Below, piece by piece: positions 2,958 to 56,893 of a DNA stretch of 64,000 nucleotides. Each line of letters opens with the position of its first letter. Positions within the stretch are counted from its first letter, which is position 1. The notes under the pieces were generated by a model. It was given only the letters and a program-made list of their open reading frames with translations, did no database searches and was not told where the DNA came from. This DNA is from Candidatus Magasanikiibacteriota bacterium. GTDB lineage: Bacteria; Patescibacteriota; Patescibacteriia; Magasanikbacterales; UBA922. The DNA is taken from positions 16,275 through 80,274 of the forward strand of contig DMXO01000003.1 of NCBI GenBank assembly GCA_003482855.1, in the 5' to 3' direction. Position numbers and translations under genes: made by a program.

Positions 2958-3332
2958 CTATTCTTTCAAACGCTGGTTAGTAAAATTTATCAAATTATTA
3001 ATCTCTCTCGGTAGATTATTTAATTCTTTCAAGATAAAAAGGTATTGTTCTTCATTGACCAATTTTCTTACCTTGGATTTTTGATTCCAGTCTAACGCTT
3101 CCTTGACTGAACCAGAAGCATATCGGTAAAATTTTATTTTGTCTTTTTTGGTATATCTTCCAAACCCCTCAGCAATGTTTGCGGAAATAGAATCAATAGC
3201 TCTTACAAATTGAGATCCAACTGTTTGTTTTTCAAACCATCCAAACTTAATTACAATATTCCATACGTAATTGGAAAGGTGAAAAGCTAGCTTATATGAA
3301 CTAACATTTTTTAATTCCAAAAATTTATCCAT
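2958..3332 (-). CDS. four-helix-bundle protein (23S rRNA intervening-sequence-protein family, TIGR02436-like)
   Basis: MDKFLELKNVSSYKLAFHLSNYVW...ANIAEGFGR pattern. Start set at the internal Met (3330-3332), because the upstream 16 codons are encoded by the flanking inverted repeat and overlap the uvrD stop. Confidence 0.7.
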   Translation of the reverse strand: MDKFLELKNVSSYKLAFHLSNYVWNIVIKFGWFEKQTVGSQFVRAIDSISANIAEGFGRYTKKDKIKFYRYASGSVKEALDWNQKSKVRKLVNEEQYLFILKELNNLPREINNLINFTNQRLKE

Positions 3333-3337
3333 ACGAA

Positions 3338-3374
3338 CAATTTGACAATTTAACAGTTTAACAATTTTACAATT
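3338..3374. repeat. right arm of the inverted repeat flanking the four-helix-bundle gene
   Basis: caatttgacaatttaacagtttaacaattttacaatt is the reverse complement of the left arm. It overlaps the last codons of uvrD. Confidence 0.5.
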
Positions 3375-5460
3375 CATCCAGCCCCTTCAAAAAACTTCGG
3401 CGCGGAGTATCCTCATCCAGTGATTCATACGTTACATCGTCATCATCGCTACTTGGATCAAAAAAAGTCGTGTCGTCCTCGTTTGTATTGTAATCTATCA
3501 AATCTCTATTTATCTCATCAATAAAAGGACTGGGGCCCTGCAATAAACTATGCGAATTCGACACAAGTGGATATGTGAGATACAAATATTTTTTTGCACG
3601 GGTAATAGCCACATAAAAAAGTCGTCGTTCTTCTTCTAAATCATCTCCTCGTGACGCTCTATCATTGGGGAATTGCCCAGCAGACACATTCAACACAAAA
3701 ACAGCAGACCACTCAAGCCCTTTTGCCTGATGGACTGTAGAAAGAATAAGCCGTTCTTCATTCCCCCCAGAATTATCATGGGCCTGCTGAGCATGGTAAC
3801 TCTCTTGCAATGTAGCTTCTCCCAGAAATCTATCCAATGCTTCAGATGGATCCTCAAGCGACATGTAACGTTCAGCAAAAACCGCAAGCTGTTCCAAATC
3901 CTGCATACGATCACGATAATCTGGATATTCATTTTCCAAATATTCCTGATACTTTGAGTCAATCACTGCACGGATAAGTTCGCTTGGTATTTTATTATGT
4001 ACCTTATTCAACTTTTCCCATATCTGCAAAAAATCACTCCACCCTATTTGCCCGCGTGCTGGCAACACAGAACCCAAATGGCGCAAATGCTCTGTACGTA
4101 CGGGCGGCTCTAGAGCCGCCCCTCCTGCGACAATCTTCTCATAAATTTTCTGCACCCCCGCTGGCCCAATCCCCACCTGCATATTAAGTACTCTACTCCA
4201 TGCAATAGTGTCTTGGATATTATTATACATACGCAAATATGCCAAAATATCTTTCACATGGGCGCGCTCAAAAAAACGTATACCTCCACGATAATCATAA
4301 GGAATATCTTCCTTTGTAAGTCTCATTTCAAGCTGTTGGGAATGAAATGCCGCACGAAATAATACGGCAATCTCACTCAGAGGGACACCTTCATCGCGCA
4401 ATTCTGAAATTCTATTCAAAATAAATTCTGCCTCTTCTCCTGCATCAGTAAACGCGTGAACCTCTGGCTTGGTAAATCCCTGCAGTACACTTACCAGTTC
4501 CTTCTTATACTGTTTAGTATTATTTGCAATCACTTCATTTGCCACATCCAAAATCTCTGGAGTGGAACGATAATTTGTTTCTAATTTAAATATCTTTGCA
4601 TCTGGGTATACTGTTTCTCCACCAGAGGCGGATCCGCCTCTGGCGGAAAAACTCAAAATATTTTGAATATCTGCCGCACGAAAACTATAAATACTCTGGG
4701 CATCGTCACCAACGACCAAAATATTTTTATGAATTGACGCACACAAATTAATAATACTCGCTTGTATTTTATTGGTATCCTGATATTCATCTACGAGTAC
4801 ATACAAAAATTGTTGCGCGTATTTATTTCTTACGTCTTCTGATTTGAGCAGGAGCAAATGAAAATATACCAGCAAATCATCAAAATCCATGACGTTTGCA
4901 GATTTCTTTCTCTTGGTATATTCTTGGGCAATACTCACGAGTATATCTTCGAAATTAATCCACTGTTCATGTTGCAATTCCAAAACATCATGTATCGTCA
5001 TTTCTGCATTACGCGCATAACTAATAATAGACTGCACAACATTGGGTGAAGGAAATCGACGCTGTGTCCGGTCAATCCCCTCTTGTTTAATACATGACTT
5101 GATCATGTCCCTAGAATCTTCACTGTCAAGTACGGAAAAATTATTTTGAAACCCGAGAACTTGAGCATACTTTTTCAAAATCCTATATCCAATATGGTGG
5201 AAAGTTCCTGACCAAGGCAATGTAATTTCTCCTTGAGTCAACTCTTGCACACGGCGTATCATCTCGTGCGCAGCTTTATTGGTAAACGTCACAAGCAAAA
5301 TATTTTTTGGGTCAACCCCTTTTTCAAGCAAATATGCCACGCGGTAAGTAATCGTACGCGTCTTTCCGCTTCCCGCTCCAGCCAAAACCAAACAAGGGCC
5401 ATCGCCCTCTAATACAACTCTCAGCTGTTCAGAATTCAACTCTTTGTCAAAATTTATCAT
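3367..5460 (-). CDS. uvrD: ATP-dependent DNA helicase, UvrD/PcrA family
   Basis: Walker A motif GAGSGKTRT plus helicase motifs (DEYQDTN, TNYRST). 697 aa. Confidence 0.9.
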   Translation of the reverse strand: MINFDKELNSEQLRVVLEGDGPCLVLAGAGSGKTRTITYRVAYLLEKGVDPKNILLVTFTNKAAHEMIRRVQELTQGEITLPWSGTFHHIGYRILKKYAQVLGFQNNFSVLDSEDSRDMIKSCIKQEGIDRTQRRFPSPNVVQSIISYARNAEMTIHDVLELQHEQWINFEDILVSIAQEYTKRKKSANVMDFDDLLVYFHLLLLKSEDVRNKYAQQFLYVLVDEYQDTNKIQASIINLCASIHKNILVVGDDAQSIYSFRAADIQNILSFSARGGSASGGETVYPDAKIFKLETNYRSTPEILDVANEVIANNTKQYKKELVSVLQGFTKPEVHAFTDAGEEAEFILNRISELRDEGVPLSEIAVLFRAAFHSQQLEMRLTKEDIPYDYRGGIRFFERAHVKDILAYLRMYNNIQDTIAWSRVLNMQVGIGPAGVQKIYEKIVAGGAALEPPVRTEHLRHLGSVLPARGQIGWSDFLQIWEKLNKVHNKIPSELIRAVIDSKYQEYLENEYPDYRDRMQDLEQLAVFAERYMSLEDPSEALDRFLGEATLQESYHAQQAHDNSGGNEERLILSTVHQAKGLEWSAVFVLNVSAGQFPNDRASRGDDLEEERRLFYVAITRAKKYLYLTYPLVSNSHSLLQGPSPFIDEINRDLIDYNTNEDDTTFFDPSSDDDDVTYESLDEDTPRRSFLKGLDEL
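4616..4650. repeat. GC-rich perfect palindrome (ccagaggcggatccgcctctgg + cggaaaa) inserted in frame in uvrD
   Basis: A 22-nt perfect palindrome inside AT-rich coding DNA. Encodes the loop ...SARGGSASGGE.... A near-identical element lies in aroB. Confidence 0.6.
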
Positions 5461-8086: not shown

Positions 8087-8857
8087 ATGGTAGCAAATGA
8101 AACATCTCCACAATATAATGGAGCCCAGGAATTAGATACGCGAGAAACAACACCGGGACGCGAAACTGAGGTACCTCGCTTTATATCACTTGCAGAAGCG
8201 CGAGAAGAATTACTAAATTTAGAACGAGTACTTGAATCGTACCCAAAAAATATTGAACAGGCAAAAAGAGAAAATAAAAAACATAGGAAAACATTTGCAG
8301 CTTTAAGTTCTGTATTTGGATATGTCACGCTTGCTTCGAGACTGCTAAGGACATACGGATGGGACACAACAGAAATTCGTACTATAAAAGATCACATAAG
8401 AAATGGTTTTGATATTAGACATTCTGACAATGACAAAAAACACCATGTACCAGGTGTACAAGAAATACAAAAAGCTATCGGGCAAAAAGGACAAGAAATT
8501 ATGCAACACATCCCTCATGCTACTCTTCAAAAATATGGCACAGACAATACACCACTTCTTCCTGCTATTATACTCAAAGGAAGATTTGTCGAAGGAGCAA
8601 AAATGCTTGGTGAAAGTCGAGGAATGAATGAGAAAGAATTAGAACAAAAACATAAAGAACTTGAAGCAGAAGTGCGAGCAGATTTCGAAGAATATTTTCA
8701 AAATTATGATGCATTCCTCAGAGATGAACATGGCGGTGGTATATCGAATGGATTGGTAGATGAATTGGATCTTCTCATACAAACAACAAAATCAACTCTC
8801 ATACAGGCAATAAACCCGGAAGAACGCATACAACTAGTACCAGAAAATCGAGCCTAG
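8087..8857 (+). CDS. hypothetical protein
   Basis: 256-aa ORF with host composition. No motif recognised. Confidence 0.5.
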   Translation: MVANETSPQYNGAQELDTRETTPGRETEVPRFISLAEAREELLNLERVLESYPKNIEQAKRENKKHRKTFAALSSVFGYVTLASRLLRTYGWDTTEIRTIKDHIRNGFDIRHSDNDKKHHVPGVQEIQKAIGQKGQEIMQHIPHATLQKYGTDNTPLLPAIILKGRFVEGAKMLGESRGMNEKELEQKHKELEAEVRADFEEYFQNYDAFLRDEHGGGISNGLVDELDLLIQTTKSTLIQAINPEERIQLVPENRA

Positions 8858-13040: not shown

Positions 13041-14138
13041 TTATTTAATCCATCTAAGATAATTCTCTACAAATTCATCTAAATCCCCATTCAATACAGC
13101 CACATCATCTGTCGTTTCATAGCGCGTACGTAAATCTTTCACCATGTGATAGGGGTGTAAGACATATGATCTTATTTGGTTCCCCCATTCAGGACTTTTG
13201 TATTCGCCACGCAATTTGAGACGCTCTTCTTCTTCTTTTTCTTCCTGCAACTTTTGCAATTTTGATTTAAGAATTTTCAAAGCTGTTTCCTTATTTTGTA
13301 ATTGTGAACGTTCATTTTGACACTGTACTGTGATACCAGTAGGAATATGTACAATACGCACAGCCGAATATGTTGTATTTACACTCTGACCACCTTTGCC
13401 TCCTGACATGAATGTATCGATTCTCAAATCTTTATCTTCTATTTTCACTTCGTCCTCGTCCTCCATTTCAGGAATAACTTCTGTAAGTGCAAAAGAAGTA
13501 TGACGCATCTTCTCTGCATCAAAAGGAGAAATGCGTACGAGTCTATGTGTGCCATGTTCACTTTTGAGATGCCCATATGCATGATTTCCTTCTACACGAA
13601 ATATAATTGATTTTATACCCGCTTCTTGCCCCTTTGTCTCATCAATAATAGTTACTTTCCATTTCTTATTTTCACAATATTTCATATACATACGCAAAAG
13701 CATCTCTGCCCAATCCTGTGCTTCAGTACCGCCCGACCCTGCATGAATCGAAACAATCGCGTTATTTCTATCATGTTTGCCATCCATGAGCGTGTTGAAT
13801 TCCAACTTGCCAACTCGATTACTTACCAACACATATTGTTTCTCAATCTCCTCACGCAAATTTACATCCTTGTCCACCTCATCCATACCCGCCATTTCCA
13901 GCAAATCTCCAACTTCCTTGTTCAGCTTTTCCCATTCACTAATTTCATTTTGCAAGTCTCCCATTTCTTTGCTTATCTTTGTTGCTGTTTCTGAATTATC
14001 CCAAAAACCTGGCTCACTAATTACTTGAGCAAGTTTTTTCACCTTTTCCTGTTTTTCATCCAATTTCAAAATCACACACATATCTGCGAGTTTTTTGGCT
14101 AAATCTTCTAGAGATTTTACTAAATCGTGCATGTCCAT
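13041..14138 (-). CDS. prfB: peptide chain release factor 2
   Basis: GGQ motif (SGGKGGQSVNTT) and the RF2-specific SPF motif. Uninterrupted frame with no programmed frameshift. Confidence 0.9.
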   Translation of the reverse strand: MDMHDLVKSLEDLAKKLADMCVILKLDEKQEKVKKLAQVISEPGFWDNSETATKISKEMGDLQNEISEWEKLNKEVGDLLEMAGMDEVDKDVNLREEIEKQYVLVSNRVGKLEFNTLMDGKHDRNNAIVSIHAGSGGTEAQDWAEMLLRMYMKYCENKKWKVTIIDETKGQEAGIKSIIFRVEGNHAYGHLKSEHGTHRLVRISPFDAEKMRHTSFALTEVIPEMEDEDEVKIEDKDLRIDTFMSGGKGGQSVNTTYSAVRIVHIPTGITVQCQNERSQLQNKETALKILKSKLQKLQEEKEEEERLKLRGEYKSPEWGNQIRSYVLHPYHMVKDLRTRYETTDDVAVLNGDLDEFVENYLRWIK

Positions 14139-14261
14139 ATGGTGAGTTTACCTAGCACAGCCTGAGGGATGAAAACGGAGACGAGCATGTCCGTAATTCG
14201 AAATATGATATATATAATTCTACGTTAGTTAAGGCAAAAATACAATACTAAATACTATTTT

Positions 14262-14352
14262 TTGGCTAAAATTGGCAAAAAAATATGTTTTAAAAAAAAT
14301 CTCATAAAATAAAAAATACTTATTAAAAAAATTGGCTAAAATTAGCAAAAAA
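14262..14352. promoter_or_regulatory. two ~21-bp direct repeats (ttggctaaaattggcaaaaaa / ttggctaaaattagcaaaaaa) 70 bp apart, upstream of the consensus promoter
   Basis: Read directly. Candidate regulator-binding sites or UP-element-like sequences. Confidence 0.4.
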
Positions 14353-14368
14353 CTAACACGAGAAAACC

Positions 14369-14397
14369 TTGACAAAACAGTTTATTTATGATATAAT
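14369..14397 (+). promoter_or_regulatory. sigma70-type promoter with perfect -35 TTGACA, 17-bp spacer and perfect -10 TATAAT
   Basis: ttgaca at 14369-14374 and tataat at 14392-14397. Drives a ~275-nt hairpin-containing leader and the GC-rich ORF at 14673. Confidence 0.55.
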
Positions 14398-14672
14398 TTG
14401 CTGTTTTGTACCTTACAAAAACTGTCTTCGTGTCCACCAATATATGTATATCTTAACGTGTACATATACTGGTTGGCACAAACAGTCAACCTCAAACACT
14501 GTACAACCTGTCTCAGACAGGTTCACATATCACCCAGATCAAACCACCTTTGTGGCGAAGGTGGTGCAGATATCATAAAGAGCGAGAGTTCGAGTGCCTG
14601 ACTGACCCTACTCAACAGTTCCTACACAAACCCAGTCTCCATTGGTGAGACAGCTACGAAAGAGAGGATACG

Positions 14673-17015
14673 ATGAGCGGAACGACGACGCGCAAGATCG
14701 CCGGCATCGCCGGCAAGGACTGGCTCCTCAACGTGACCGGGATGAAGGTGTTCGGCGACTCGCTCCTCACGGAGCGGGTGCGCAAGGAACTCTCCCGGTT
14801 CGCCTGGGTCCTCCTGATCCAGTTGATCGTGGACCTCTGGGTCTGGACCACCCTGTGGTCCTACGCCCTCCCGAGCTCGATGTTCTGGTCCCTGTCGCTC
14901 GGAACGATGTTCGCCCTGTTGATCTTCAAGGTCGACCAGGGCGTCATCACCCACGACACGTCGAGTGACGAGGGACGCCTCCGGCCGATCATCGGCCGAG
15001 CGATCCTCCTGCTCATGATCGCGCTCATCACGGCCCTCGCCGTGGAACTCGGCGTGTTCGCCACGGCCATCGATCGGCGACTCGACCAGCGCGAGAACAT
15101 CGCGGTCACGGAGCTCAAGGAGACCGAGATCGCGAAGATCAACAGCAAGTACCAGAAGCTGATCGACCAGGCGCGTGCCGACGGCACCGAGGCCACGTCC
15201 CACGCCCAGACCACGGGGCAGCAGGACGTTGAGTCCTACAAGTCCCAGCGTGCCACCGAGCGTGCCTCAATCGAGGCCCGGTACGCGGCCGACAAGAAGG
15301 CCATCGAGGACCAGATCGCCGCCGGCGACCAGCGCATCCTCGACGAGACCAAGGGCCGTTTCACCGGTCGCTCGGGCATCGGCCCCATGGTCATCGCGCT
15401 CCAGCAGGAGAAGGAGAAGGCTCTCGGTGAGCTCTCCAAGATCCGCCAGGCCGAGGCCACCGAACTCGGCACCTTCGACACCACTACCGCGGCCTCCATC
15501 GCCTCGCTCGAGAGCAAGCGCGACACCGACACGGCCACGGCCACGACGACCAACAAGGCGAGGGTCGAAGGCCTCCAGATGCAGTGGGAAGACAAGGTGC
15601 AGGAGATCCGCGAGATGAATCGCGACCGATTCGCCACCATCTACGGTGGTGACTGGAAGCAGGATCGCGGCTTCCTCACCAGGTTCCACGCGCTCCAGGA
15701 GATGGCGAGCGAGGACTCGATCATCCAGTGGCTCATCTGGGGCACCCGGCTCCTGATGATGATCATCGGTATGGCCATCCTCATCCTCAAGCTCAGCTCC
15801 AGCCGTGAGTTCGTCAACTACTTCTCCTACCGGGCGCAGATCGCCGCCGGCAACCCCGACGCCACCGCCCACGCGGAAGCAGAAGGGTACAACGACCCCA
15901 CCAACCGCAAGGCACTCGCCTGGCCACCCGAGACCCTCGAGGTCATGGGTGCCCTGCACATGGCGCGACTCAACCTGTGCAAGGCCTGGCGTGCCTGGTG
16001 GCAGCAGGCCGGTGAGACCTGCAAGCAGGACGCAAAGACTGGCCTCTGCCGGTCCCGCGATGACGTCGCCACCCAGCTCCGGCTGGCGTGGAACTTGACC
16101 GTCCAGCCCATGGTCGACGCCCTGGCCACGGCCGAGCGTGAGGTCGAGCTCAACGGCCGCAGCATCCCCCGCTGGGATGAAACGCGCTACCCCGAGCCCG
16201 ACCCCCGCAACATGACCGAACCGTGGGACCTGTCCGACACGCAGCTCCGCGGTCTCGGATGGGAGGACCCCTCCGAGAAGGTCCGTGATGCCCAGGAGGC
16301 CGTGATTCAGCTGCCGGGTCTCTACCGGCAGATCATCGACTTCATGGCGACCATGGACATGGGAACCCGGCGGCAGATCCGCACTGCTCCGGCCACCTCC
16401 CTCCTCGTGCTCGAGGATCGGCGCTTCCAGTTCTACCACACGCAGATGCGTAGGGTCCTGGAGGACATGGAAGATGCCGAGCGCAAGATCGCTTCGACCG
16501 GTCGGCACATGCCCGAGCGTCCCCGCTCCCTGCGGGAGACGGACCAGATCCGGGAGTGCTGGCGGCTCGACCGCCGCACGCTCCGTGACTGGGGCTGGCA
16601 GCAGGACGTGCCCCGCAGCACGCCCCCTGCTCCGGCTCCTGTCCGGACCCCGGCTCCCACGACCACCTCGGCCCCGACCGCCACGCCCCCGGCCCCGCCG
16701 GTGAACACCGTCTCGACGTCGCTGCCCGAGGTCGACATGTCCCTGACCGGTGACGACGCGACCCGCGTCGACATCCGGCCCCCGGCCGAGCTGGCCGACG
16801 AGACGGACGACGAACCCGAATTCGACGTCGGGGCCGATCTCTCGGAAGCCGACACGAACCCGGGGTCGATCCACCCCGACCTCGTCGCCATCCAGACTGA
16901 GGGCGGCAACGGACAGACGCCGCCGGTCAACGGCGATGGCTTCGGCCAGGACGACATGGCGTTCTTCCGCAGCGAGCCGGAGACGGCCACGCCCGGCGAC
17001 AAGCTGGCCAACTAG
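14673..17015 (+). CDS. GC-rich membrane protein (N-terminal TM helices, central coiled coil, third TM, acidic Pro/Thr-rich C-terminal tail); DUF4407-like architecture
   Basis: Codon third positions are almost all G/C in this frame only. AGAGAGGA SD 5 nt upstream. Composition differs sharply from the flanking DNA. Confidence 0.7.
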   Translation: MSGTTTRKIAGIAGKDWLLNVTGMKVFGDSLLTERVRKELSRFAWVLLIQLIVDLWVWTTLWSYALPSSMFWSLSLGTMFALLIFKVDQGVITHDTSSDEGRLRPIIGRAILLLMIALITALAVELGVFATAIDRRLDQRENIAVTELKETEIAKINSKYQKLIDQARADGTEATSHAQTTGQQDVESYKSQRATERASIEARYAADKKAIEDQIAAGDQRILDETKGRFTGRSGIGPMVIALQQEKEKALGELSKIRQAEATELGTFDTTTAASIASLESKRDTDTATATTTNKARVEGLQMQWEDKVQEIREMNRDRFATIYGGDWKQDRGFLTRFHALQEMASEDSIIQWLIWGTRLLMMIIGMAILILKLSSSREFVNYFSYRAQIAAGNPDATAHAEAEGYNDPTNRKALAWPPETLEVMGALHMARLNLCKAWRAWWQQAGETCKQDAKTGLCRSRDDVATQLRLAWNLTVQPMVDALATAEREVELNGRSIPRWDETRYPEPDPRNMTEPWDLSDTQLRGLGWEDPSEKVRDAQEAVIQLPGLYRQIIDFMATMDMGTRRQIRTAPATSLLVLEDRRFQFYHTQMRRVLEDMEDAERKIASTGRHMPERPRSLRETDQIRECWRLDRRTLRDWGWQQDVPRSTPPAPAPVRTPAPTTTSAPTATPPAPPVNTVSTSLPEVDMSLTGDDATRVDIRPPAELADETDDEPEFDVGADLSEADTNPGSIHPDLVAIQTEGGNGQTPPVNGDGFGQDDMAFFRSEPETATPGDKLAN

Positions 17016-17129
17016 ACCAAGCGACGCCACAACGCAAGGTCTATAAAAACGTCCTCTGTGTGACTCACGCAACTACTGCGACACAGATTCAACATACTAG
17101 CCTCCCTACAGGCGTAGTCCCTACTTTCT

Positions 17130-17297: not shown

Positions 17298-19022
<1,725 letters not shown>

Positions 19023-19034
19023 CTACCCAAGAAA

Positions 19035-19059
19035 GATCCCTCTCCGCCCTGGGCGGATC
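19035..19059. repeat. GC-rich palindrome (tccgccctgggcgga core) in the groEL-groES spacer, related to the uvrD/aroB in-frame elements
   Basis: Core tccgccc-t-gggcgga compared with tccgcctctggcgga in uvrD. Confidence 0.4.
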
Positions 19060-19074
19060 AGGATGACAGACTGT

Positions 19075-19350
19075 TTACTCTATCACCGCAATCACATCGT
19101 CATGGTTCAAAATCTTGTGTTCTACTCCATCAACATCCACTTCTTCTCCACCCCATTTTTTGAACAAAACTTTCATGCCAGCTTTCAAATCTAATCGAGA
19201 AAGTTTCTTACCATTGCCAAGGGCAATGATTTCTCCCTCCATCTTTTTTTCTTTGTCTACAGTGTCTGGTAATACAATGCCAGACTTAGTCACTTCTTCC
19301 TCCTTCATTGGTTTGACCAATATACGATTGCCGAGTGGTCTTATTGTCAT
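19075..19350 (-). CDS. groS: co-chaperonin GroES
   Basis: MTIRPLGNRILVKP... Start set at the internal Met (19348-19350), giving the canonical ~91 aa. Confidence 0.9.
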   Translation of the reverse strand: MTIRPLGNRILVKPMKEEEVTKSGIVLPDTVDKEKKMEGEIIALGNGKKLSRLDLKAGMKVLFKKWGGEEVDVDGVEHKILNHDDVIAVIE

Positions 19351-19378
19351 ACAAAATATATTAAAATTACTTATTAAT

Positions 19379-19405
19379 TTGTCACTCAATATTATTGAGT
19401 GCTAA
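19379..19405. promoter_or_regulatory. CIRCE operator (HrcA binding site): ttgtCACTC-N9-GAGTGCTAA
   Basis: Matches the consensus TTAGCACTC-N9-GAGTGCTAA with a 9-nt spacer. Lies ~30 nt upstream of the groES start and overlaps the predicted transcription start. Confidence 0.75.
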
Positions 19406-28855: not shown

Positions 28856-29115
28856 ATGTGAATGACTGAATTTTAGGTTATAGGTTATAGGTATTAGGTA
28901 GATTAGATTTTTAAATCAGAATATATAATACTTATCTAAATACCTATAACCTAATACCTTCTAATAATATCATAATCTTGACATTGGTTCCAAAAGATGT
29001 TTATATAAAATACTTTGTTCTTTATATACATCGTTGGTGCTGTACCTATTTATTTATACAAATAGATATATACGGCATCAACGACGCGGGCGATGACCCG
29101 CACAGGAGGGATCTC

Positions 29116-29826
29116 ATGACCAGACAGTTCAGGAAGGGCCGGCCTCGGCGAAAGAAGGGGCAGCAGGCCCCGACGGGGACGAGGCCGAAGGAGTGGCGCA
29201 AGAAGTACACGAACGACGAAGATGACGTCGATGACAACGAGGTGAAGGGGTGGATTGGCTTCGCCCTGCTCGCCTTCGTCATCATCGTGATCGCTGTGTT
29301 CGTGTTGGTCGTCTTCGTCTCGTGCGCCATCGAGGGCGCCGAGTGGCAGGATGGCACCCTGGACACCGACGACCCCCCCACGATCGGAGAGGTCGTCGAG
29401 TCGGACAGCAGTGTCCGCCACTGCACGGGGGGCCTCCCATTCTGCGACTGCGAGACCGACGCCGACTGCCCGGAGGAGTACATCTGCAGCGATCGCTACG
29501 GCTCGCTCTCGTGCGTCGGGCCCGAGTGCACGCCCGACGATGAGGAGGGCATATACAGCGACTGCGACGACGACGAGCGCTGCAGCTTCGACCGCTGCTA
29601 CGAAGGGCGGTGCTTCTACACCCAGTGGACGCACATCCCGGAGTGCTACGGTGAGTCGTCGTGCTACGTGGACGACGACTGCGAAGCGCCGCCCGGCTTC
29701 GAGCCGGGTCCATGCGTCGCGTACGGGTGCTTCCTCCCGAGCGGCGTCTGTGGCGCCGTCGTGCTCGACGGGGAGTCGTGCTCCGCCGGGCTCGGGGTGT
29801 GCGACCCCGATGGCGTGTGCCGCTGA
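29116..29826 (+). CDS. GC-rich single-pass membrane protein with basic N-terminal tail and acidic Cys-rich (CxxDxDC…GxC) extracellular repeats
   Basis: Start set at the ATG preceded by AGGAGGG (29104-29110). The ORF-track start at 28978 lies in AT-rich non-coding DNA. About 30 Cys residues in 4 repeat units. G/C-dominated third positions. Confidence 0.6.
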   Translation: MTRQFRKGRPRRKKGQQAPTGTRPKEWRKKYTNDEDDVDDNEVKGWIGFALLAFVIIVIAVFVLVVFVSCAIEGAEWQDGTLDTDDPPTIGEVVESDSSVRHCTGGLPFCDCETDADCPEEYICSDRYGSLSCVGPECTPDDEEGIYSDCDDDERCSFDRCYEGRCFYTQWTHIPECYGESSCYVDDDCEAPPGFEPGPCVAYGCFLPSGVCGAVVLDGESCSAGLGVCDPDGVCR

Positions 29827-29922
29827 CCATGTCCGGCAAGCATAAAAAACTCAAGGAGACGCGATCGTGGGGGCGATCGCATGGAGTTCAGTGTCCCGAT
29901 GTATATCGGGATAGTGAAATAC

Positions 29923-41423: not shown

Positions 41424-41455
41424 TGAAAAGAACGCCCTCCAACTCTATCTGCATA

Positions 41456-42523
41456 TCAGTCCTCCTCTTCCTCCTCATCCTCGAAGCCGATCAGCAGTTC
41501 GCCGACGATGTTCGTGGAGAGGAACATCTGGATCCGATCCGGGTGCTTGGGGTGCATGGCGATGGCCTGGCGGAACTTGATGTCCCCCATAGCCGGCGTG
41601 AGGCTCTCCAGCGAGAGCGCCCCGGCCGCCTTGGCCTTCGCACCGAGCTCGTACCGACTCAGGACGACGCGCCCGTCCTCGAACGGGGAGAGGATGCCCA
41701 CGTGGATGCCCGCGTCGGTCGCGGCCTTGATCGCGTCGATCCACGAGTAGTTGGCGTCCCCCATGTCCCACGGCCGATCCGGGATGTTGCCCGCGCCCTT
41801 GGCCTCAAGGATCACGCCCTTGATGCGACCAGCCTTGACCATATCCATCAGGACGTAGGGCGGGGTGTCAGCGGACACCATGAGCGACACTACGTGCTGC
41901 TCAAACTTGGTGTCGAGGCGGAGGCCCTGGACCGCGGCGACGGGGTCCTTGCGATGGACGCCGTCCATGATCATGATCTTCGGGAAGGCTTTGGCCACAG
42001 GGTGACGTCCGGGCGTGTGGAACGCCGCGAAGTCGGCCTCGTTGCGCTTGCGGACACGCGAGCCGTCGAGCACGTCGCCGAGGCAGACGCTGTAGACGCC
42101 CACGATGCCGTTCCGCAGGAAGGACTTGCCGACGCGCATGGTGTTCGCCACCTGCATGGCCACATCCGAGCCCGACTCCTCCTTGGTCATCTGCGCGCCG
42201 ATCACGAAGACCGGCTTCTGCAGCGACAGCTTGAAGAGCATGGCCAGGAACGCACAGGACTCCGCCAGGGAATCCGTGCCATGCAGGATGATGAACATCT
42301 CGTGGTCGTCGTAGGCCGCCGCGATCATCTGGCCCATCACGACCCGGTCGTTGTGCATGACGTTGGTCGAGTCCTGCCGTTGCGGGAAGTCCTCGAGCGT
42401 CAGCTCGATGCCCTTGGGGAGTACGATCCCCTCAAGCAGCTCGGCCGCGGACTTCGCGGGATGCAACGGATCCCCGACCATCCCCAGAGTTCCTCCCGTG
42501 TTAAGAACGTATGCTTTCTTCAT
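41456..42523 (-). CDS. ansA: L-asparaginase (type I / GatD-like asparaginase family), GC-rich
   Basis: TGGTLGM and HGTDSL signatures. Start set at the ATG preceded by GGAAGGAA; the ORF-track start is a TTG. G/C-dominated third positions. Confidence 0.8.
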   Translation of the reverse strand: MKKAYVLNTGGTLGMVGDPLHPAKSAAELLEGIVLPKGIELTLEDFPQRQDSTNVMHNDRVVMGQMIAAAYDDHEMFIILHGTDSLAESCAFLAMLFKLSLQKPVFVIGAQMTKEESGSDVAMQVANTMRVGKSFLRNGIVGVYSVCLGDVLDGSRVRKRNEADFAAFHTPGRHPVAKAFPKIMIMDGVHRKDPVAAVQGLRLDTKFEQHVVSLMVSADTPPYVLMDMVKAGRIKGVILEAKGAGNIPDRPWDMGDANYSWIDAIKAATDAGIHVGILSPFEDGRVVLSRYELGAKAKAAGALSLESLTPAMGDIKFRQAIAMHPKHPDRIQMFLSTNIVGELLIGFEDEEEEED

Positions 42524-42605
42524 CTTCGGTTCCTTCCACAATCAAAGGCTCTTCACCTCCACACTCCCACACTCGCGGGTGTGCGCTCGGTGTTATCGAC
42601 CCTCC

Positions 42606-54729: not shown

Positions 54730-55763
54730 ATTTTATTTACTTTACTAAGTAAGTAATGATCCACGAGCACTAGTGCCACCATCGCCTCTACAATCACGGG
54801 CGCGCGCAATGCAACACATGGATCATGCCGACCATGAACTTGGATGTCAACTTCCTGGCCATTCGTATCTACTGTTTTTTGTGCTTTAACGATACTTGAT
54901 GTTGGTTTGAATGCTACTCGCAATACAATATCTTCCCCATTTGATATACCTCCCACAATCCCACCAGCATGATTAGTTTTAGTCCTCACCTTTCCATCTC
55001 TCATTTCTAACTCATCATTATTTTCCGAACCCTTCTTTTCTACGCACGCAAATCCATCACCGATCTCTACACCCTTTGCGGCAGGTATGGTCATAAGTGC
55101 ATGTGCCAAATCTGCGGATAATTTATTAAACACTGGCTCGCCAAGCCCCACAGGAACATTTTTAGCAACAACCTCCACAACTCCACCCACAGAATCACCA
55201 TCTTTGCGAGCTTCTTCAATTTCTTCAATATATCTTTCTTCAAATTTTTTTCCTTTATTTTCGTATTCTACATTTCTTTTAATCTTTCCTACCTGGATAA
55301 TCTCAGCATTTACTTCAACCCCTATTCGTTGCAACAGTGCCTTCGCCACCGCTCCTGCCGCCACTCTCCCAATTGTTTCTCGTGCAGATGCCCGTCCTCC
55401 GCCTCGCCAATCGCGAAAACCGTACTTCATATCATACACATAATCAGCATGGCCTGGACGATATGTGTCTTTTATTCCTTCGTAACTTACAGACTGTGCG
55501 TCTCCGTTGCGTATAAGCAACGCAATAGGTGTGCCCAATGTTTTCCCATCAAAAATGCCCGATAAAATTTCTACCTGATCTTTCTCTTTTCGTTGCGAAG
55601 TTAGATTACTTTGCCCAGGTCTGCGTCTGTCTAATTCTTTTTGAATATCTTCCCTTGTAATTTCTAATCCTGCAGGACATCCGTCAATCACAACACCGAC
55701 CCCAACGCCATGTGATTCGCCGAATGTCGTTATTTTAAATATATTTCCAAAAATGTTACTCAT
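54726..55763 (-). CDS. aroC: chorismate synthase
   Basis: N-terminal FGESHG. Confidence 0.9.
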   Translation of the reverse strand: MSNIFGNIFKITTFGESHGVGVGVVIDGCPAGLEITREDIQKELDRRRPGQSNLTSQRKEKDQVEILSGIFDGKTLGTPIALLIRNGDAQSVSYEGIKDTYRPGHADYVYDMKYGFRDWRGGGRASARETIGRVAAGAVAKALLQRIGVEVNAEIIQVGKIKRNVEYENKGKKFEERYIEEIEEARKDGDSVGGVVEVVAKNVPVGLGEPVFNKLSADLAHALMTIPAAKGVEIGDGFACVEKKGSENNDELEMRDGKVRTKTNHAGGIVGGISNGEDIVLRVAFKPTSSIVKAQKTVDTNGQEVDIQVHGRHDPCVALRAPVIVEAMVALVLVDHYLLSKVNKI

Positions 55764-56893
55764 ATTAGTAAGGATTCTTTAATAATCTTTTCATCGACAC
55801 TATGTACAAAATTATTTTTTTCTTTATAAAACTCACCAATTCCTTTCAACAACACGAATCTCGCTTCTCCATCTTTTGCTTTTTTATCCAACCTAATCTC
55901 TCTCAAAATATCTTTCCAGCCAAAGGCTGGTCCGCCTTTGGCGGAAATATCCCAATATCCCAATATCTTAATATCCAATATTTTTTTCAAAAAATTTTCA
56001 ATTTCAATATAATCTTCCTCATCCAATACCCCCATCAACATAGAAATTCTTGCTTCAACCAACATCCCCAATCCTACGGCTTCACCGTGCATCAATTCAT
56101 ACTTACTTAACTTTTCAATCGCATGCCCGATTGTATGTCCAAAATTCAAAATACTCCGTTCCCCTTTTTCTCGTTCGTCTCTCATCACCACTCTTGCCTT
56201 AATTTCAACTGCGCGAGTAATTATTTTTTCTAATACATGTAAATCTAAATCTAAAATATTTTTTATATTTTTTCTTACATATTCAAACATCTCTATGTCA
56301 TGCGTTAAAAACATTTTTATGGCTTCCAACAATCCATTAATAATATGCTTGCGAGGAAGTGTTTCTACAACTCCTGGAGTAATAAAAACTGCAACTGGTT
56401 GCCAAAATGAGCCAATCAAATTTTTACCATACTTCGTGTCTATTCCCGTCTTTCCACCCACCGAACTATCCACCATTGCAAGCAATGTTGTTGGGATTTG
56501 AATATACGAAATACCGCGCATATAGGTGGAGGCGACATAGCCTGCGACATCACCAACTACTCCGCCACCAAGTGCGATAATAAGAGTATCACGGCTACAC
56601 GCGAGTTTGAACATTTCGTTGTGCAAATGAGTAACGATTTTTTGTGTTTTGCTTTTTTCGCCATGAGAAAAATGAAAAATATTGGATATTGGATATTGGA
56701 TATTATTTTTTAAATCTTTCAACAATTTATCGCCGTATAATTTCCTTACCTTACTATCAGTAATAATAACAATATGTGAGACATCTTGTTTTTTTATAAA
56801 CTGAATCAAAGGCTTCAACAAACCATTTCCAATTACAATATCATATTGTCTATGTGCGCTTGGTAAATTTATTTTTATTTGTTTATTTTTCAT
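55760..56893 (-). CDS. aroB: 3-dehydroquinate synthase
   Basis: GGGVVGDVAGYVASTYMRGI and GHTIGHAIE motifs. Confidence 0.9.
   Translation of the reverse strand: MKNKQIKINLPSAHRQYDIVIGNGLLKPLIQFIKKQDVSHIVIITDSKVRKLYGDKLLKDLKNNIQYPISNIFHFSHGEKSKTQKIVTHLHNEMFKLACSRDTLIIALGGGVVGDVAGYVASTYMRGISYIQIPTTLLAMVDSSVGGKTGIDTKYGKNLIGSFWQPVAVFITPGVVETLPRKHIINGLLEAIKMFLTHDIEMFEYVRKNIKNILDLDLHVLEKIITRAVEIKARVVMRDEREKGERSILNFGHTIGHAIEKLSKYELMHGEAVGLGMLVEARISMLMGVLDEEDYIEIENFLKKILDIKILGYWDISAKGGPAFGWKDILREIRLDKKAKDGEARFVLLKGIGEFYKEKNNFVHSVDEKIIKESLLI
55916..55985. repeat. composite in-frame repeat inside aroB: GC palindrome (gccaaaggc-tggtcc-gcctttggc + cggaaat) followed by ccaatatc tandem octamers
   Basis: The palindrome half tccgcctttggcggaaat is about 16/18 identical to the uvrD element. 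It encodes ...SAKGGPAFGW... An inverted copy of the octamer block lies at 56673..56712. Confidence 0.55.
56673..56712. repeat. gatattgg tandem octamers inside aroB (inverted relative to 55946..55985)
   Basis: aatattggatattggatattggatatt encodes ...NNIQYPISNI... Confidence 0.5.

Follow-up and report, generated by a model that had tools for sequence, protein, structure and literature searches.

Why should two unrelated housekeeping genes of one bacterium carry, in frame, almost the same GC-rich palindrome? The question arises from a 64,000-nt stretch of a Candidatus Magasanikiibacteriota genome (assembly GCA_003482855.1, contig DMXO01000003.1, positions 16,275 to 80,274; hereafter the window), in which a first-pass annotation, made from the sequence alone, had pointed to such palindromes in the helicase gene uvrD and the 3-dehydroquinate synthase gene aroB. 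Both proved to be 30-nt copies of one double-hairpin element, each reading as a 10-residue Ser/Ala/Gly loop. The interpretation that we consider likely is that they are copies of a dispersed, non-autonomous 30-bp repeat, which inserted into the two genes and is read through as a tolerated loop.

The element in uvrD and aroB

The uvrD (pcrA) gene (3367..5460, minus strand) encodes a UvrD/PcrA helicase of 697 residues that is intact apart from the insert (mean predicted local distance difference test score, pLDDT, of its AlphaFold model 84.8), and aroB (55760..56893, minus strand) encodes a 3-dehydroquinate synthase of 377 residues (mean pLDDT 93.3). The uvrD copy (4618..4647, minus strand; nhmmer 45.7 bits) stands opposite a 10-residue gap in PcrA (1PJR) and reads, on the coding strand, TCC GCC AGA GGC GGA TCC GCC TCT GGT GGA, that is SARGGSASGG, UvrD residues 272-281. 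The aroB copy (55916..55945, minus strand) reads TCC GCC AAA GGC GGA CCA GCC TTT GGC TGG, that is SAKGGPAFGW, AroB residues 317-326. Each copy is exactly 30 nt long and consists of two 15-nt stem-loops (TCCGCC-N3-GGCGGA) arranged head to tail, every unit having a 6-bp stem, TCCGCC/GGCGGA, and a 3-nt loop. The units are TCCGCC-AGA-GGCGGA and TCCGCC-TCT-GGTGGA in uvrD, and TCCGCC-AAA-GGCGGA and CCAGCC-TTT-GGCTGG, both perfect hairpins, in aroB; the two copies agree at 23 of 30 positions. The first-pass annotation was right that their right halves are identical at 16 of 18 positions and right about a palindrome of about 30 nt, but the 'cgga' that it added as a tail is the last arm of the second hairpin. 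Nor is the left half of the aroB copy degraded; its plus-strand sequence, CCAGCC-AAA-GGCTGG, pairs perfectly as a hairpin in which two base pairs are compensated.

The background GC content is ~38%. The uvrD copy contains a perfect 22-nt palindromic core (CCAGAGGCGGA|TCCGCCTCTGG, 4622..4643) with a BamHI-like GGATCC centre, which has a single match in the window and none in 100 shuffles, and the pattern TCCGCC-N3-GGCGGA occurs three times (4633, 19043 and 55931) where 0.00 occurrences are expected. As single-stranded DNA the uvrD and aroB copies fold with energies of -17.6 and -15.0 kcal/mol (z = -8.1 and -5.6 relative to shuffles). A sequence-only profile run over the window recovered the two full copies and one single unit, and no more, while an Rfam scan of the window returned one tRNA only.

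That the two copies were inserted rather than inherited is clear from comparison with their relatives. The 10 AroB residues are found only in the window protein among 120 homologues, being absent from all 119 others, and the nearest of these (locus L001, 77% identity) has a clean 30-nt gap at the insert. In UvrD the short form F-E-x-x-Y-P is shared by PcrA (1PJR) and by about 107 of 120 relatives, and the window protein has 10 additional residues between F and E; the site is occupied in about 13 of the 120 homologues, which form a polyphyletic subset of Magasanikbacteria. An empty uvrD allele (locus L136) reads GAT TTT|GAA AAG, and filled alleles read TTT[30 nt]GAA or GAG. A third gene, uvrB of a Liptonbacteria metagenome-assembled genome (MAG), provides a further pair, an empty TTC|AAA and a filled TTT[30 nt]AAA, and in none of these three filled/empty comparisons (AroB, UvrD, UvrB) was a target duplication found. 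Among cluster members there was no near-identical protein lacking the insert. Alignment of UvrD and AroB orthologues, which the first-pass annotation had proposed as a check, bears out lineage-specific insertions, with the refinement that the element itself occurs across phyla and that the UvrD insert, present in about 13 of 120 homologues, is not one private event. Mapping onto structures, the other check proposed, places both inserts in low-confidence surface loops of the AlphaFold models: in UvrD the insert falls within a coil (272-288) where pLDDT is below 50 at 275-282, and in AroB the sole segment with pLDDT below 50 is 316-319, in the loop modelled between helices 308-314 and 326-335.

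What is conserved is the nucleotide sequence and not the peptide, because the codons used are rare in the window: TCC accounts for 6% of its codon family there, GCC for 12% and GGC for 18%, and the chance probability of the observed coding of SAxGGSAxGG is ~1.7e-7. Moreover, UvrD alleles whose genes are ~65-70% identical at the nucleotide level keep 23-24 of the 24 stem bases. Covariation among variant copies gives 11 compensated pairs under a model of two hairpins and 2 under a model of one long hairpin; loop 1 is purine-rich (NRA) and loop 2 pyrimidine-rich (TYN), and the loops of the two units are statistically independent. A single long 30-nt hairpin as the conserved structure, which the two window copies themselves do form when folded, is ruled out by the independent loops and by the 11 versus 2 compensated pairs. 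There was no signal of selection on mRNA structure, single substitutions having led to sense-strand G-U pairs and to mismatches in 8 and 7 cases.

Insert-bearing UvrD alleles fall in at least six scattered places on a neighbour-joining tree, in which the empty P0003 pairs with the filled P0002 and the filled P0001 lies outside both, and there are decayed or shortened alleles reading SARGGENG, SAQDGDG, SATDGKG and SGSSSGRG. We found no local excess of identity that would mark a recombination tract common to the filled alleles.

Other insertions were observed at and around these sites. In the UvrD of P0094 (locus L134) a 21-nt hairpin, CCTGCCTGTCCGGTAGGCAGG, read ACLSGRQ, is nested in unit 1 of the 30-nt element, and in that of P0011 (locus L133) unit 1 holds a different 24-nt insert, read PSHLAGRQ. 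The UvrB of P0244 (L137 3001-4875), sister of the filled L024, has just one unit at that F| site, with a loop of 4 nt (TCCGCC AACT GGCGGA), in another frame and read HPPTGG. Variable loops of UvrD (P0032, P0035, P0037, P0040, P0051) and UvrB (P0254, P0257, P0337, P0353) hold other short peptides, VIPSEARNPS, VIASERSERGNPE, SPLEGGRGV, LPTGQAG and RISGAEPRTELRSG, which are typical of GC-rich palindromic repeats. Because these loops hold other peptides of palindrome type, in-frame colonisation by hairpin repeats seems to be general in genomes of the Candidate Phyla Radiation (CPR). The window UvrD itself has, in a hypervariable loop, a perfect 20-nt palindrome (4102-4121, GGGCGGCTCTAGAGCCGCCC, read GAALEPP), of which no further copies were found in the window or in any fetched locus.

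Spread, target site and reading frame

A scan of species-representative genomes with the pattern TCCGCYNNNGGCGGAYYCGCCNNNGGYGGA yielded at least 120 matching stretches, where chance would give 0.07 at 50% GC and 4.5 if every genome had 70% GC; the figures for the family given here and below rest on the matches listed. The wider search for palindromes that the first-pass annotation had proposed therefore found many copies, and its repeat-family interpretation is upheld. All 120 records among the matches listed are MAGs. Counted by record title, 64 of them are from CPR/Patescibacteria (about 20 named classes), 12 from the Planctomycetes-Verrucomicrobia-Chlamydiae (PVC) group (Kiritimatiellae, Lentisphaerae, Verrucomicrobiota, Planctomycetes), 11 from Omnitrophota, 10 from 'uncultured Gammaproteobacteria', 5 from Ignavibacteria/Bacteroidota, 2 each from Chloroflexota and Firmicutes, one each from Deltaproteobacteria, Firestonebacteria and Margulisbacteria, and 11 are unclassified. 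The element is thus not lineage-specific, being spread across CPR classes and at least nine other labelled phylum-level groups, and since some of the non-CPR contigs are 0.1-1.6 Mb long, mis-binning is no explanation. About two thirds of the copies are intragenic, 85 of 126 lying within stop-free spans of at least 150 aa. A Pfam scan of 10 host open reading frames (ORFs) gave matches to housekeeping families for nine (DnaG, PheT in two copies, UvrB, Mfd, ArsA, class II aminoacyl-tRNA synthetase, GH57, PolX and HsdR). A metagenome scan for UvrD relatives gave five distant loci and no further copies.

Phages are not a major reservoir, because the element was found in no more than 3 of 2.9 million viral contigs, of which one is a genuine phage fragment. 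This contig (L130, with terminase, Mu-like portal and capsid genes) has two intergenic copies, at 356-385 and 8270-8299, and comes from the same groundwater sample as a sister Magasanikbacterium; in one of its copies all four arms have changed in concert (TCAGCC/GGCTGA).

Across the family TTY precedes the element and RAA follows it, in coding-like and non-coding-like copies alike: position -2 is T in 49 of 63 coding-like and 18 of 19 non-coding-like copies, and position +2 is A in 58 of 63 and 16 of 19, respectively. On the coding strand of uvrD, TTT (Phe271, 4648..4650, minus strand) stands directly 5' of the insert and GAA (Glu282, 4615..4617, minus strand) directly 3' of it, each being a pre-existing half of a TTY|RAA site. 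The same flanks are already present in the empty alleles of three genes (TTT|GAA in UvrD, TTC|AAA in UvrB, and ATT followed by a variable K/E/I codon in AroB), so that TTY|RAA reflects a preference for certain targets, or a microhomology, and does not belong to the insert itself.

The reading frame of the copies is strongly biased. Phase 0, the Ser-Ala-x-Gly-Gly frame, accounts for 64 of the 76 copies within stop-free spans of at least 200 aa (phases 0/1/2, 64/7/5; P = 8e-20 against a rate of 1/3); the distribution is 50/4/1 for spans of at least 300 aa and 4/9/7 for spans below 100 aa. Part of this bias comes from the target. In the genes of the window, TTYRAA junctions fall 43% in phase 0, 13% in phase 1 and 45% in phase 2, and TT|RA junctions 68%, 1% and 31%, the near absence from one frame arising because T|RA would there be a stop codon. 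Even when set against a target availability of 43-68%, the preference for phase 0 has P = 1e-3 to 1e-13, and phase 2 is strongly depleted beyond target supply, so that selection against the Pro-rich or Arg-rich readings is also needed. Off-frame readings do occur in real genes, as PPKADPPRAE in the UvrB of L139 and as LRQRRIRLGRK in a class-V aminotransferase of L073.

Mode of spread and rival explanations

On the likely reading that the uvrD and aroB sequences are copies of a dispersed repeat, the course of events is as follows. Each copy entered a pre-existing AT-rich TTY|RAA junction, where no host sequence was lost and no target duplicated. A copy that landed between codons would be read through as Ser-Ala-x-Gly-Gly-Ser-Ala-x-Gly-Gly, which is possible because the element is 30 nt long and stop-free in its common forms, and the flexible 10-residue loop so produced would be tolerated at protein surfaces; copies in the other frames (RQRRIRLWRK, PPEADPPLAE) would mostly be purged by selection. 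The element is most likely without function for the host. For the step of movement itself we infer, as a possibility that we regard as rather doubtful, that it is mobilised in trans by a hairpin-recognising, seamlessly integrating enzyme, through single-strand chemistry resembling that of IS200/IS605 elements or of repetitive extragenic palindromes (REPs) and their REP-associated tyrosine transposases (RAYTs). Single-strand hairpin chemistry fits best because the gain is seamless, the site short and specific, the hairpins two in number and duplication absent. Among alternative routes, a cut-and-paste transposase of variable stagger and polymerase template switching at TTY/RAA microhomology are both unlikely, and RNA-mediated insertion primed on TTT/AAA appears improbable.

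Several observations weigh against an actively moving, translated repeat. No mobilising enzyme was found in the 1.1 Mb around copies; a single IS200-like TnpA turned up there (L079, with an IS200 TnpA sequence as probe), and its hairpins are unrelated to the element. Both flanks of the element are constrained, whereas IS200/IS605 elements constrain the 5' flank only. Two full copies in the 64 kb of the window is an unusual density for an active repeat, and a profile search of 57 kb from more distant Magasanikbacteria gave no copies. Presence/absence polymorphism between near-identical strains was not seen, the net length change varies between alleles (+10 aa or +9 aa), and the translation of the insert as a loop is itself a prediction from the reading frame. 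At the UvrD site, recurrent insertion, an old insertion followed by precise and seamless loss, and allele transfer are inseparable. Lastly, 12 of 122 copies (~10%) have 6-7-nt direct repeats, RAAnnTY in form, on their two sides, where 1.1 are expected by shuffled pairing and ~1.7 from the 1.4% rate at unoccupied TTY|RAA sites. These repeats belong to tandem tracts that extend on both sides of the element (e.g. aggattt cggattt aggattt[EL]aggattt), with a period of 6-8 nt and units that start with RAA and end with TTY; they are 7-10 times commoner than at unoccupied sites and are found at L040 1161-1227, L071 2435-2525, L073 7334-7424, L043, L121 and L139. The tracts may be target-rich tracts, footprints, or products of hairpin-induced slippage, and they could in particular be footprints of a duplication-forming mechanism. 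A simple 7-bp target duplication as the general rule is ruled out by the empty-site comparisons, by frame arguments and by the two-sidedness of the tracts.

Another idea is that of a minimal miniature inverted-repeat transposable element (MITE), in which the 15-bp terminal inverted repeats of a DDE transposon, whose parent would end in TCCGCCNRAGGCGGA, stand directly side by side as a pair and move by cut-and-paste with a ~7-bp stagger at RAAnTTY, the copies in genes being rare survivors. The whole element is nearly an inverted-repeat pair, direct repeats flank 12 of 122 copies against the 1.1-1.7 expected, and the tandem 7-mer arrays around some copies could be excision footprints. We nevertheless hold this to be unlikely, and perhaps markedly so: duplication is missing from all three empty/filled comparisons, there is no general RAA or TTY signal at positions -7..-5 and +5..+7, a 37-nt gain is excluded by the host reading frame in two genes (L073, L139), the loops of the supposed inverted repeats are independent, and no units flanking a transposase gene were found in the 1.1 Mb of loci. 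The same lack of duplication at the three sites with empty alleles would suit a spread without any dedicated enzyme, by microhomology-mediated copy-in or gene conversion, in which a nascent strand ending in TTY switches to another copy, in its own genome or in imported DNA, copies the hairpins and returns at RAA. Strong hairpins stall polymerases, the target already has the conserved flanks, the copies are accompanied by no gene that is linked or recurrent, and a phage contig with two copies could deliver templates. Still, a microhomology of 3 nt is a very slender basis for repeated success, and neither the near-identical stems across phyla at low copy number nor the tandem tracts around ~10% of copies are explained, so that copy-in, too, strikes us as unlikely. 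Template switching or fold-back synthesis could also have made each palindrome locally, with no transfer between sites; such mutations do create perfect short inverted repeats, and the arms within a unit co-vary as fold-back copying predicts. As the sole origin this is refuted, and we give it hardly any credence, for it is unable to yield the same 24 stem bases at 120 or more unrelated sites in about ten phyla, and the empty alleles have no half-site to copy from.

Alternatively, the Gly-rich loops might be ancestral, or maintained at the protein level as a functional motif or an old variable loop; similar peptides do occupy the same site in UvrD relatives of several clades, and fungal-type 3-dehydroquinate synthases have a longer native segment where AroB has its insert. 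The short F-E-x-x-Y-P form in PcrA and about 107 of 120 UvrD relatives, the uniqueness of the AroB insert among 120 homologues, and the recurrence of the same 30 nt, in rare codons (P ~1.7e-7), in unrelated proteins of many phyla and in non-coding DNA largely refute this view, which we consider highly improbable; the fungal residues, moreover, are unrelated to the AroB insert. A nucleic-acid signal selected by the host (a DNA-uptake sequence, or a protein-binding, RNA-processing, pause or termination site) would account for stems that are far better conserved than the loops or the flanking synonymous sites, and the uptake sequences of Neisseria and Haemophilus also show reading-frame preferences inside genes. 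We think it very unlikely, since the density is ~1 per 30 kb or less compared with ~1 per kb for uptake sequences, positional regularity is absent, sense-strand G-U pairs show no excess over mismatches (8 vs 7), and UvrD copies have decayed or been partly deleted (SARGGENG, SAQDGDG, SGSSSGRG); nor is the element a terminator, because on either strand it is A, and not T, that comes after the hairpin. Finally, all records among the matches listed being MAGs, and palindromes being a possible product of chimeric reads, an assembly or library artefact has to be considered. It is refuted for practical purposes and next to inconceivable, as the same UvrD site is filled in alleles that come from independent projects and were built with independent assemblers, and that show sequence variants, nested insertions and decay, the copies lie in frame within intact genes, and long-read MAG contigs of 1.6 Mb carry the element.

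Returning to the dispersed repeat, all-against-all clustering of 2,445 ORFs around copies gave no recurrent protein family near them. As a tentative proposal, which may well prove too broad, we suggest an unrecognised, many-phylum family of 30-bp double-hairpin mobile elements that would be the smallest bacterial transposable unit, inserting seamlessly at TTY|RAA by a hairpin-recognising enzyme acting in trans, passed between uncultivated bacteria that live together (CPR, Omnitrophota, PVC, Ignavibacteria and others), continually adding 10-residue Ser/Ala/Gly loops to essential proteins, and being one of several such hairpin families in CPR. If the element does move, it would bring the minimum size of a mobile DNA unit down to 30 bp of recognition structure without cargo, and would point to an enzyme or repair route common to many uncultivated phyla. 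Near-identical copies in CPR and in phyla that may be their hosts or neighbours would trace DNA exchange in groundwater and sediment communities. The element offers a possible explanation for part of the many lineage-specific insertions in CPR housekeeping proteins and supplies a natural list of the places in essential enzymes where a flexible 10-residue insert is tolerated. It is also a warning for annotation, phylogenomics and structure prediction, in that loops recurring at the same sites are nonetheless non-homologous characters.

The tnpA gene of L079 (3485-3904) and a copy of the element are 720 nt apart. The end hairpins of this IS200-like gene, CCACTGGT-TCG-ACCAGTGG and GACTGCCC-TTG-GGGCAGTC, have a similar build of stem plus triloop, with 8-bp stems, and a different sequence.

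Known palindromic repeats and other features of the window

The literature that we searched holds no published description of the element, its matches being primers, synthetic linkers and comparator elements, which agrees with the first-pass annotation in regarding it as apparently undescribed. The annotation's comparison with Rickettsia palindromic elements (RPEs), said there to behave alike but to be much longer, was also apt, the element being a gene insert that is in frame and 30 nt in length. RPEs are palindromic, lie in frame in unrelated housekeeping genes, and encode a peptide judged compatible with the fold, their mode of movement being unknown; they are ~100-150 bp long, form about ten families with a conserved peptide of 30-50 aa of their own, and occur in Rickettsia only (PMC10969869). 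The 30-nt element likewise inserts in frame into unrelated protein genes at fold-compatible positions. It differs in its size (30 bp, 10 aa) and in its distribution over about ten phyla of hosts other than Rickettsia, and we set it apart from RPEs by description and not by sequence. It is closest to RPEs in behaviour and, in form, to mitochondrial GC clusters and double-hairpin elements. Its minimal size and cross-phylum spread are unusual; hairpin repeats that colonise coding sequence are a known kind.

Among the GC clusters, GC42 is a mitochondrial element of 42 nt, mostly intergenic, with an AG target dinucleotide on both sides and an unknown mechanism (PMC4478555). The 30-nt element shares with yeast mitochondrial GC clusters a short GC-rich hairpin in an AT-rich genome, stems conserved over loops, and a mobility deduced from presence and absence, but is bacterial, about two thirds intragenic, flanked by TTY|RAA, and without duplication at the verified sites. 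The double-hairpin elements of Allomyces mitochondria (Paquin et al. 2000, cited in PMC4478555) are reportedly very short mobile repeats of two adjacent hairpins; they are reported from intergenic regions, introns and variable regions of rRNA, in-frame colonisation of protein genes not being their hallmark. REPs and their doublets (REPINs) resemble the element as imperfect palindromes of 20-40 nt in inverted doublets that are non-autonomous and make no target duplication, and recognition of single-stranded DNA hairpins is plausible for the element as it is for REPs and IS200/IS605. Unlike it, REPs are extragenic, species-specific, present in hundreds per genome and preceded by a 5' GTAG tetranucleotide, whereas the element is mostly intragenic and its flanks read TTY and RAA. 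REPs also come with a RAYT gene; in the 1.1 Mb around copies the one candidate was the TnpA of L079. Of the traits of IS200/IS605 transposition, seamless insertion and hairpins were observed for the element, and the constraint lies on both of its flanks rather than on one. Bacterial MITEs (Correia, ERIC, BOX) are likewise small, non-autonomous and built of inverted repeats, with occasional in-frame fusions, but typically measure 50-500 bp, with a core between terminal inverted repeats and a fixed duplication, as opposed to 30 bp with no core and no consistent duplication. DNA uptake sequences differ in being lineage-specific and present at ~1 per kb, compared with 2 copies per 64 kb in the window and occurrence in many phyla.

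The first-pass annotation had also counted a related copy between groEL (17298-18944, minus strand) and groES (19075-19389, minus strand). A related unit is indeed there, but not a copy of the 30-nt element: it is one hairpin, TCCGCC-CTG-GGCGGA (19043..19057), which scores only 6 bits with the 30-nt model and lies inside a different, MITE-like repeat (18940..19068) with inverted repeats GTCATTCTGA (18940) and TCAGGATGAC (19068). This repeat, which fills the spacer in the window, is absent from the orthologous groES-groEL spacer in L135. It belongs to a family of the form (T)GTCATYCTGA ... TCAGGATGAC(A), 50-140 bp long and intergenic, with variable internal GC hairpins, other members being found at L135 12077-12227, L127 2133-2228 and L038 4763-4842. 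The motif GTCATYCTGA occurs 28 times in the 1.1 Mb of loci, where ~4 are expected, and often as intergenic +/- pairs 50-140 nt apart.

The gene directly downstream of uvrD in the window (2958-3377, minus strand) encodes a 23S rRNA-intervening-sequence protein of family PF05635, which is a bAvd-related four-helix bundle; a PF05635 gene is also directly downstream of uvrD in L133 (2182-2565), and in L136 (1217-1567) one stands ~5.4 kb upstream of it. Elsewhere in the window, three islands of 55-57% GC (14100-17100, 29000-29900 and 41450-42600) stand out from the 38% background and may have been acquired horizontally. They contain, respectively, the gene for a 780-aa DUF4407 protein (14673-17015, plus strand), an unannotated 282-aa ORF (28978-29826, plus strand) and an asparaginase gene (41456-42541, minus strand).

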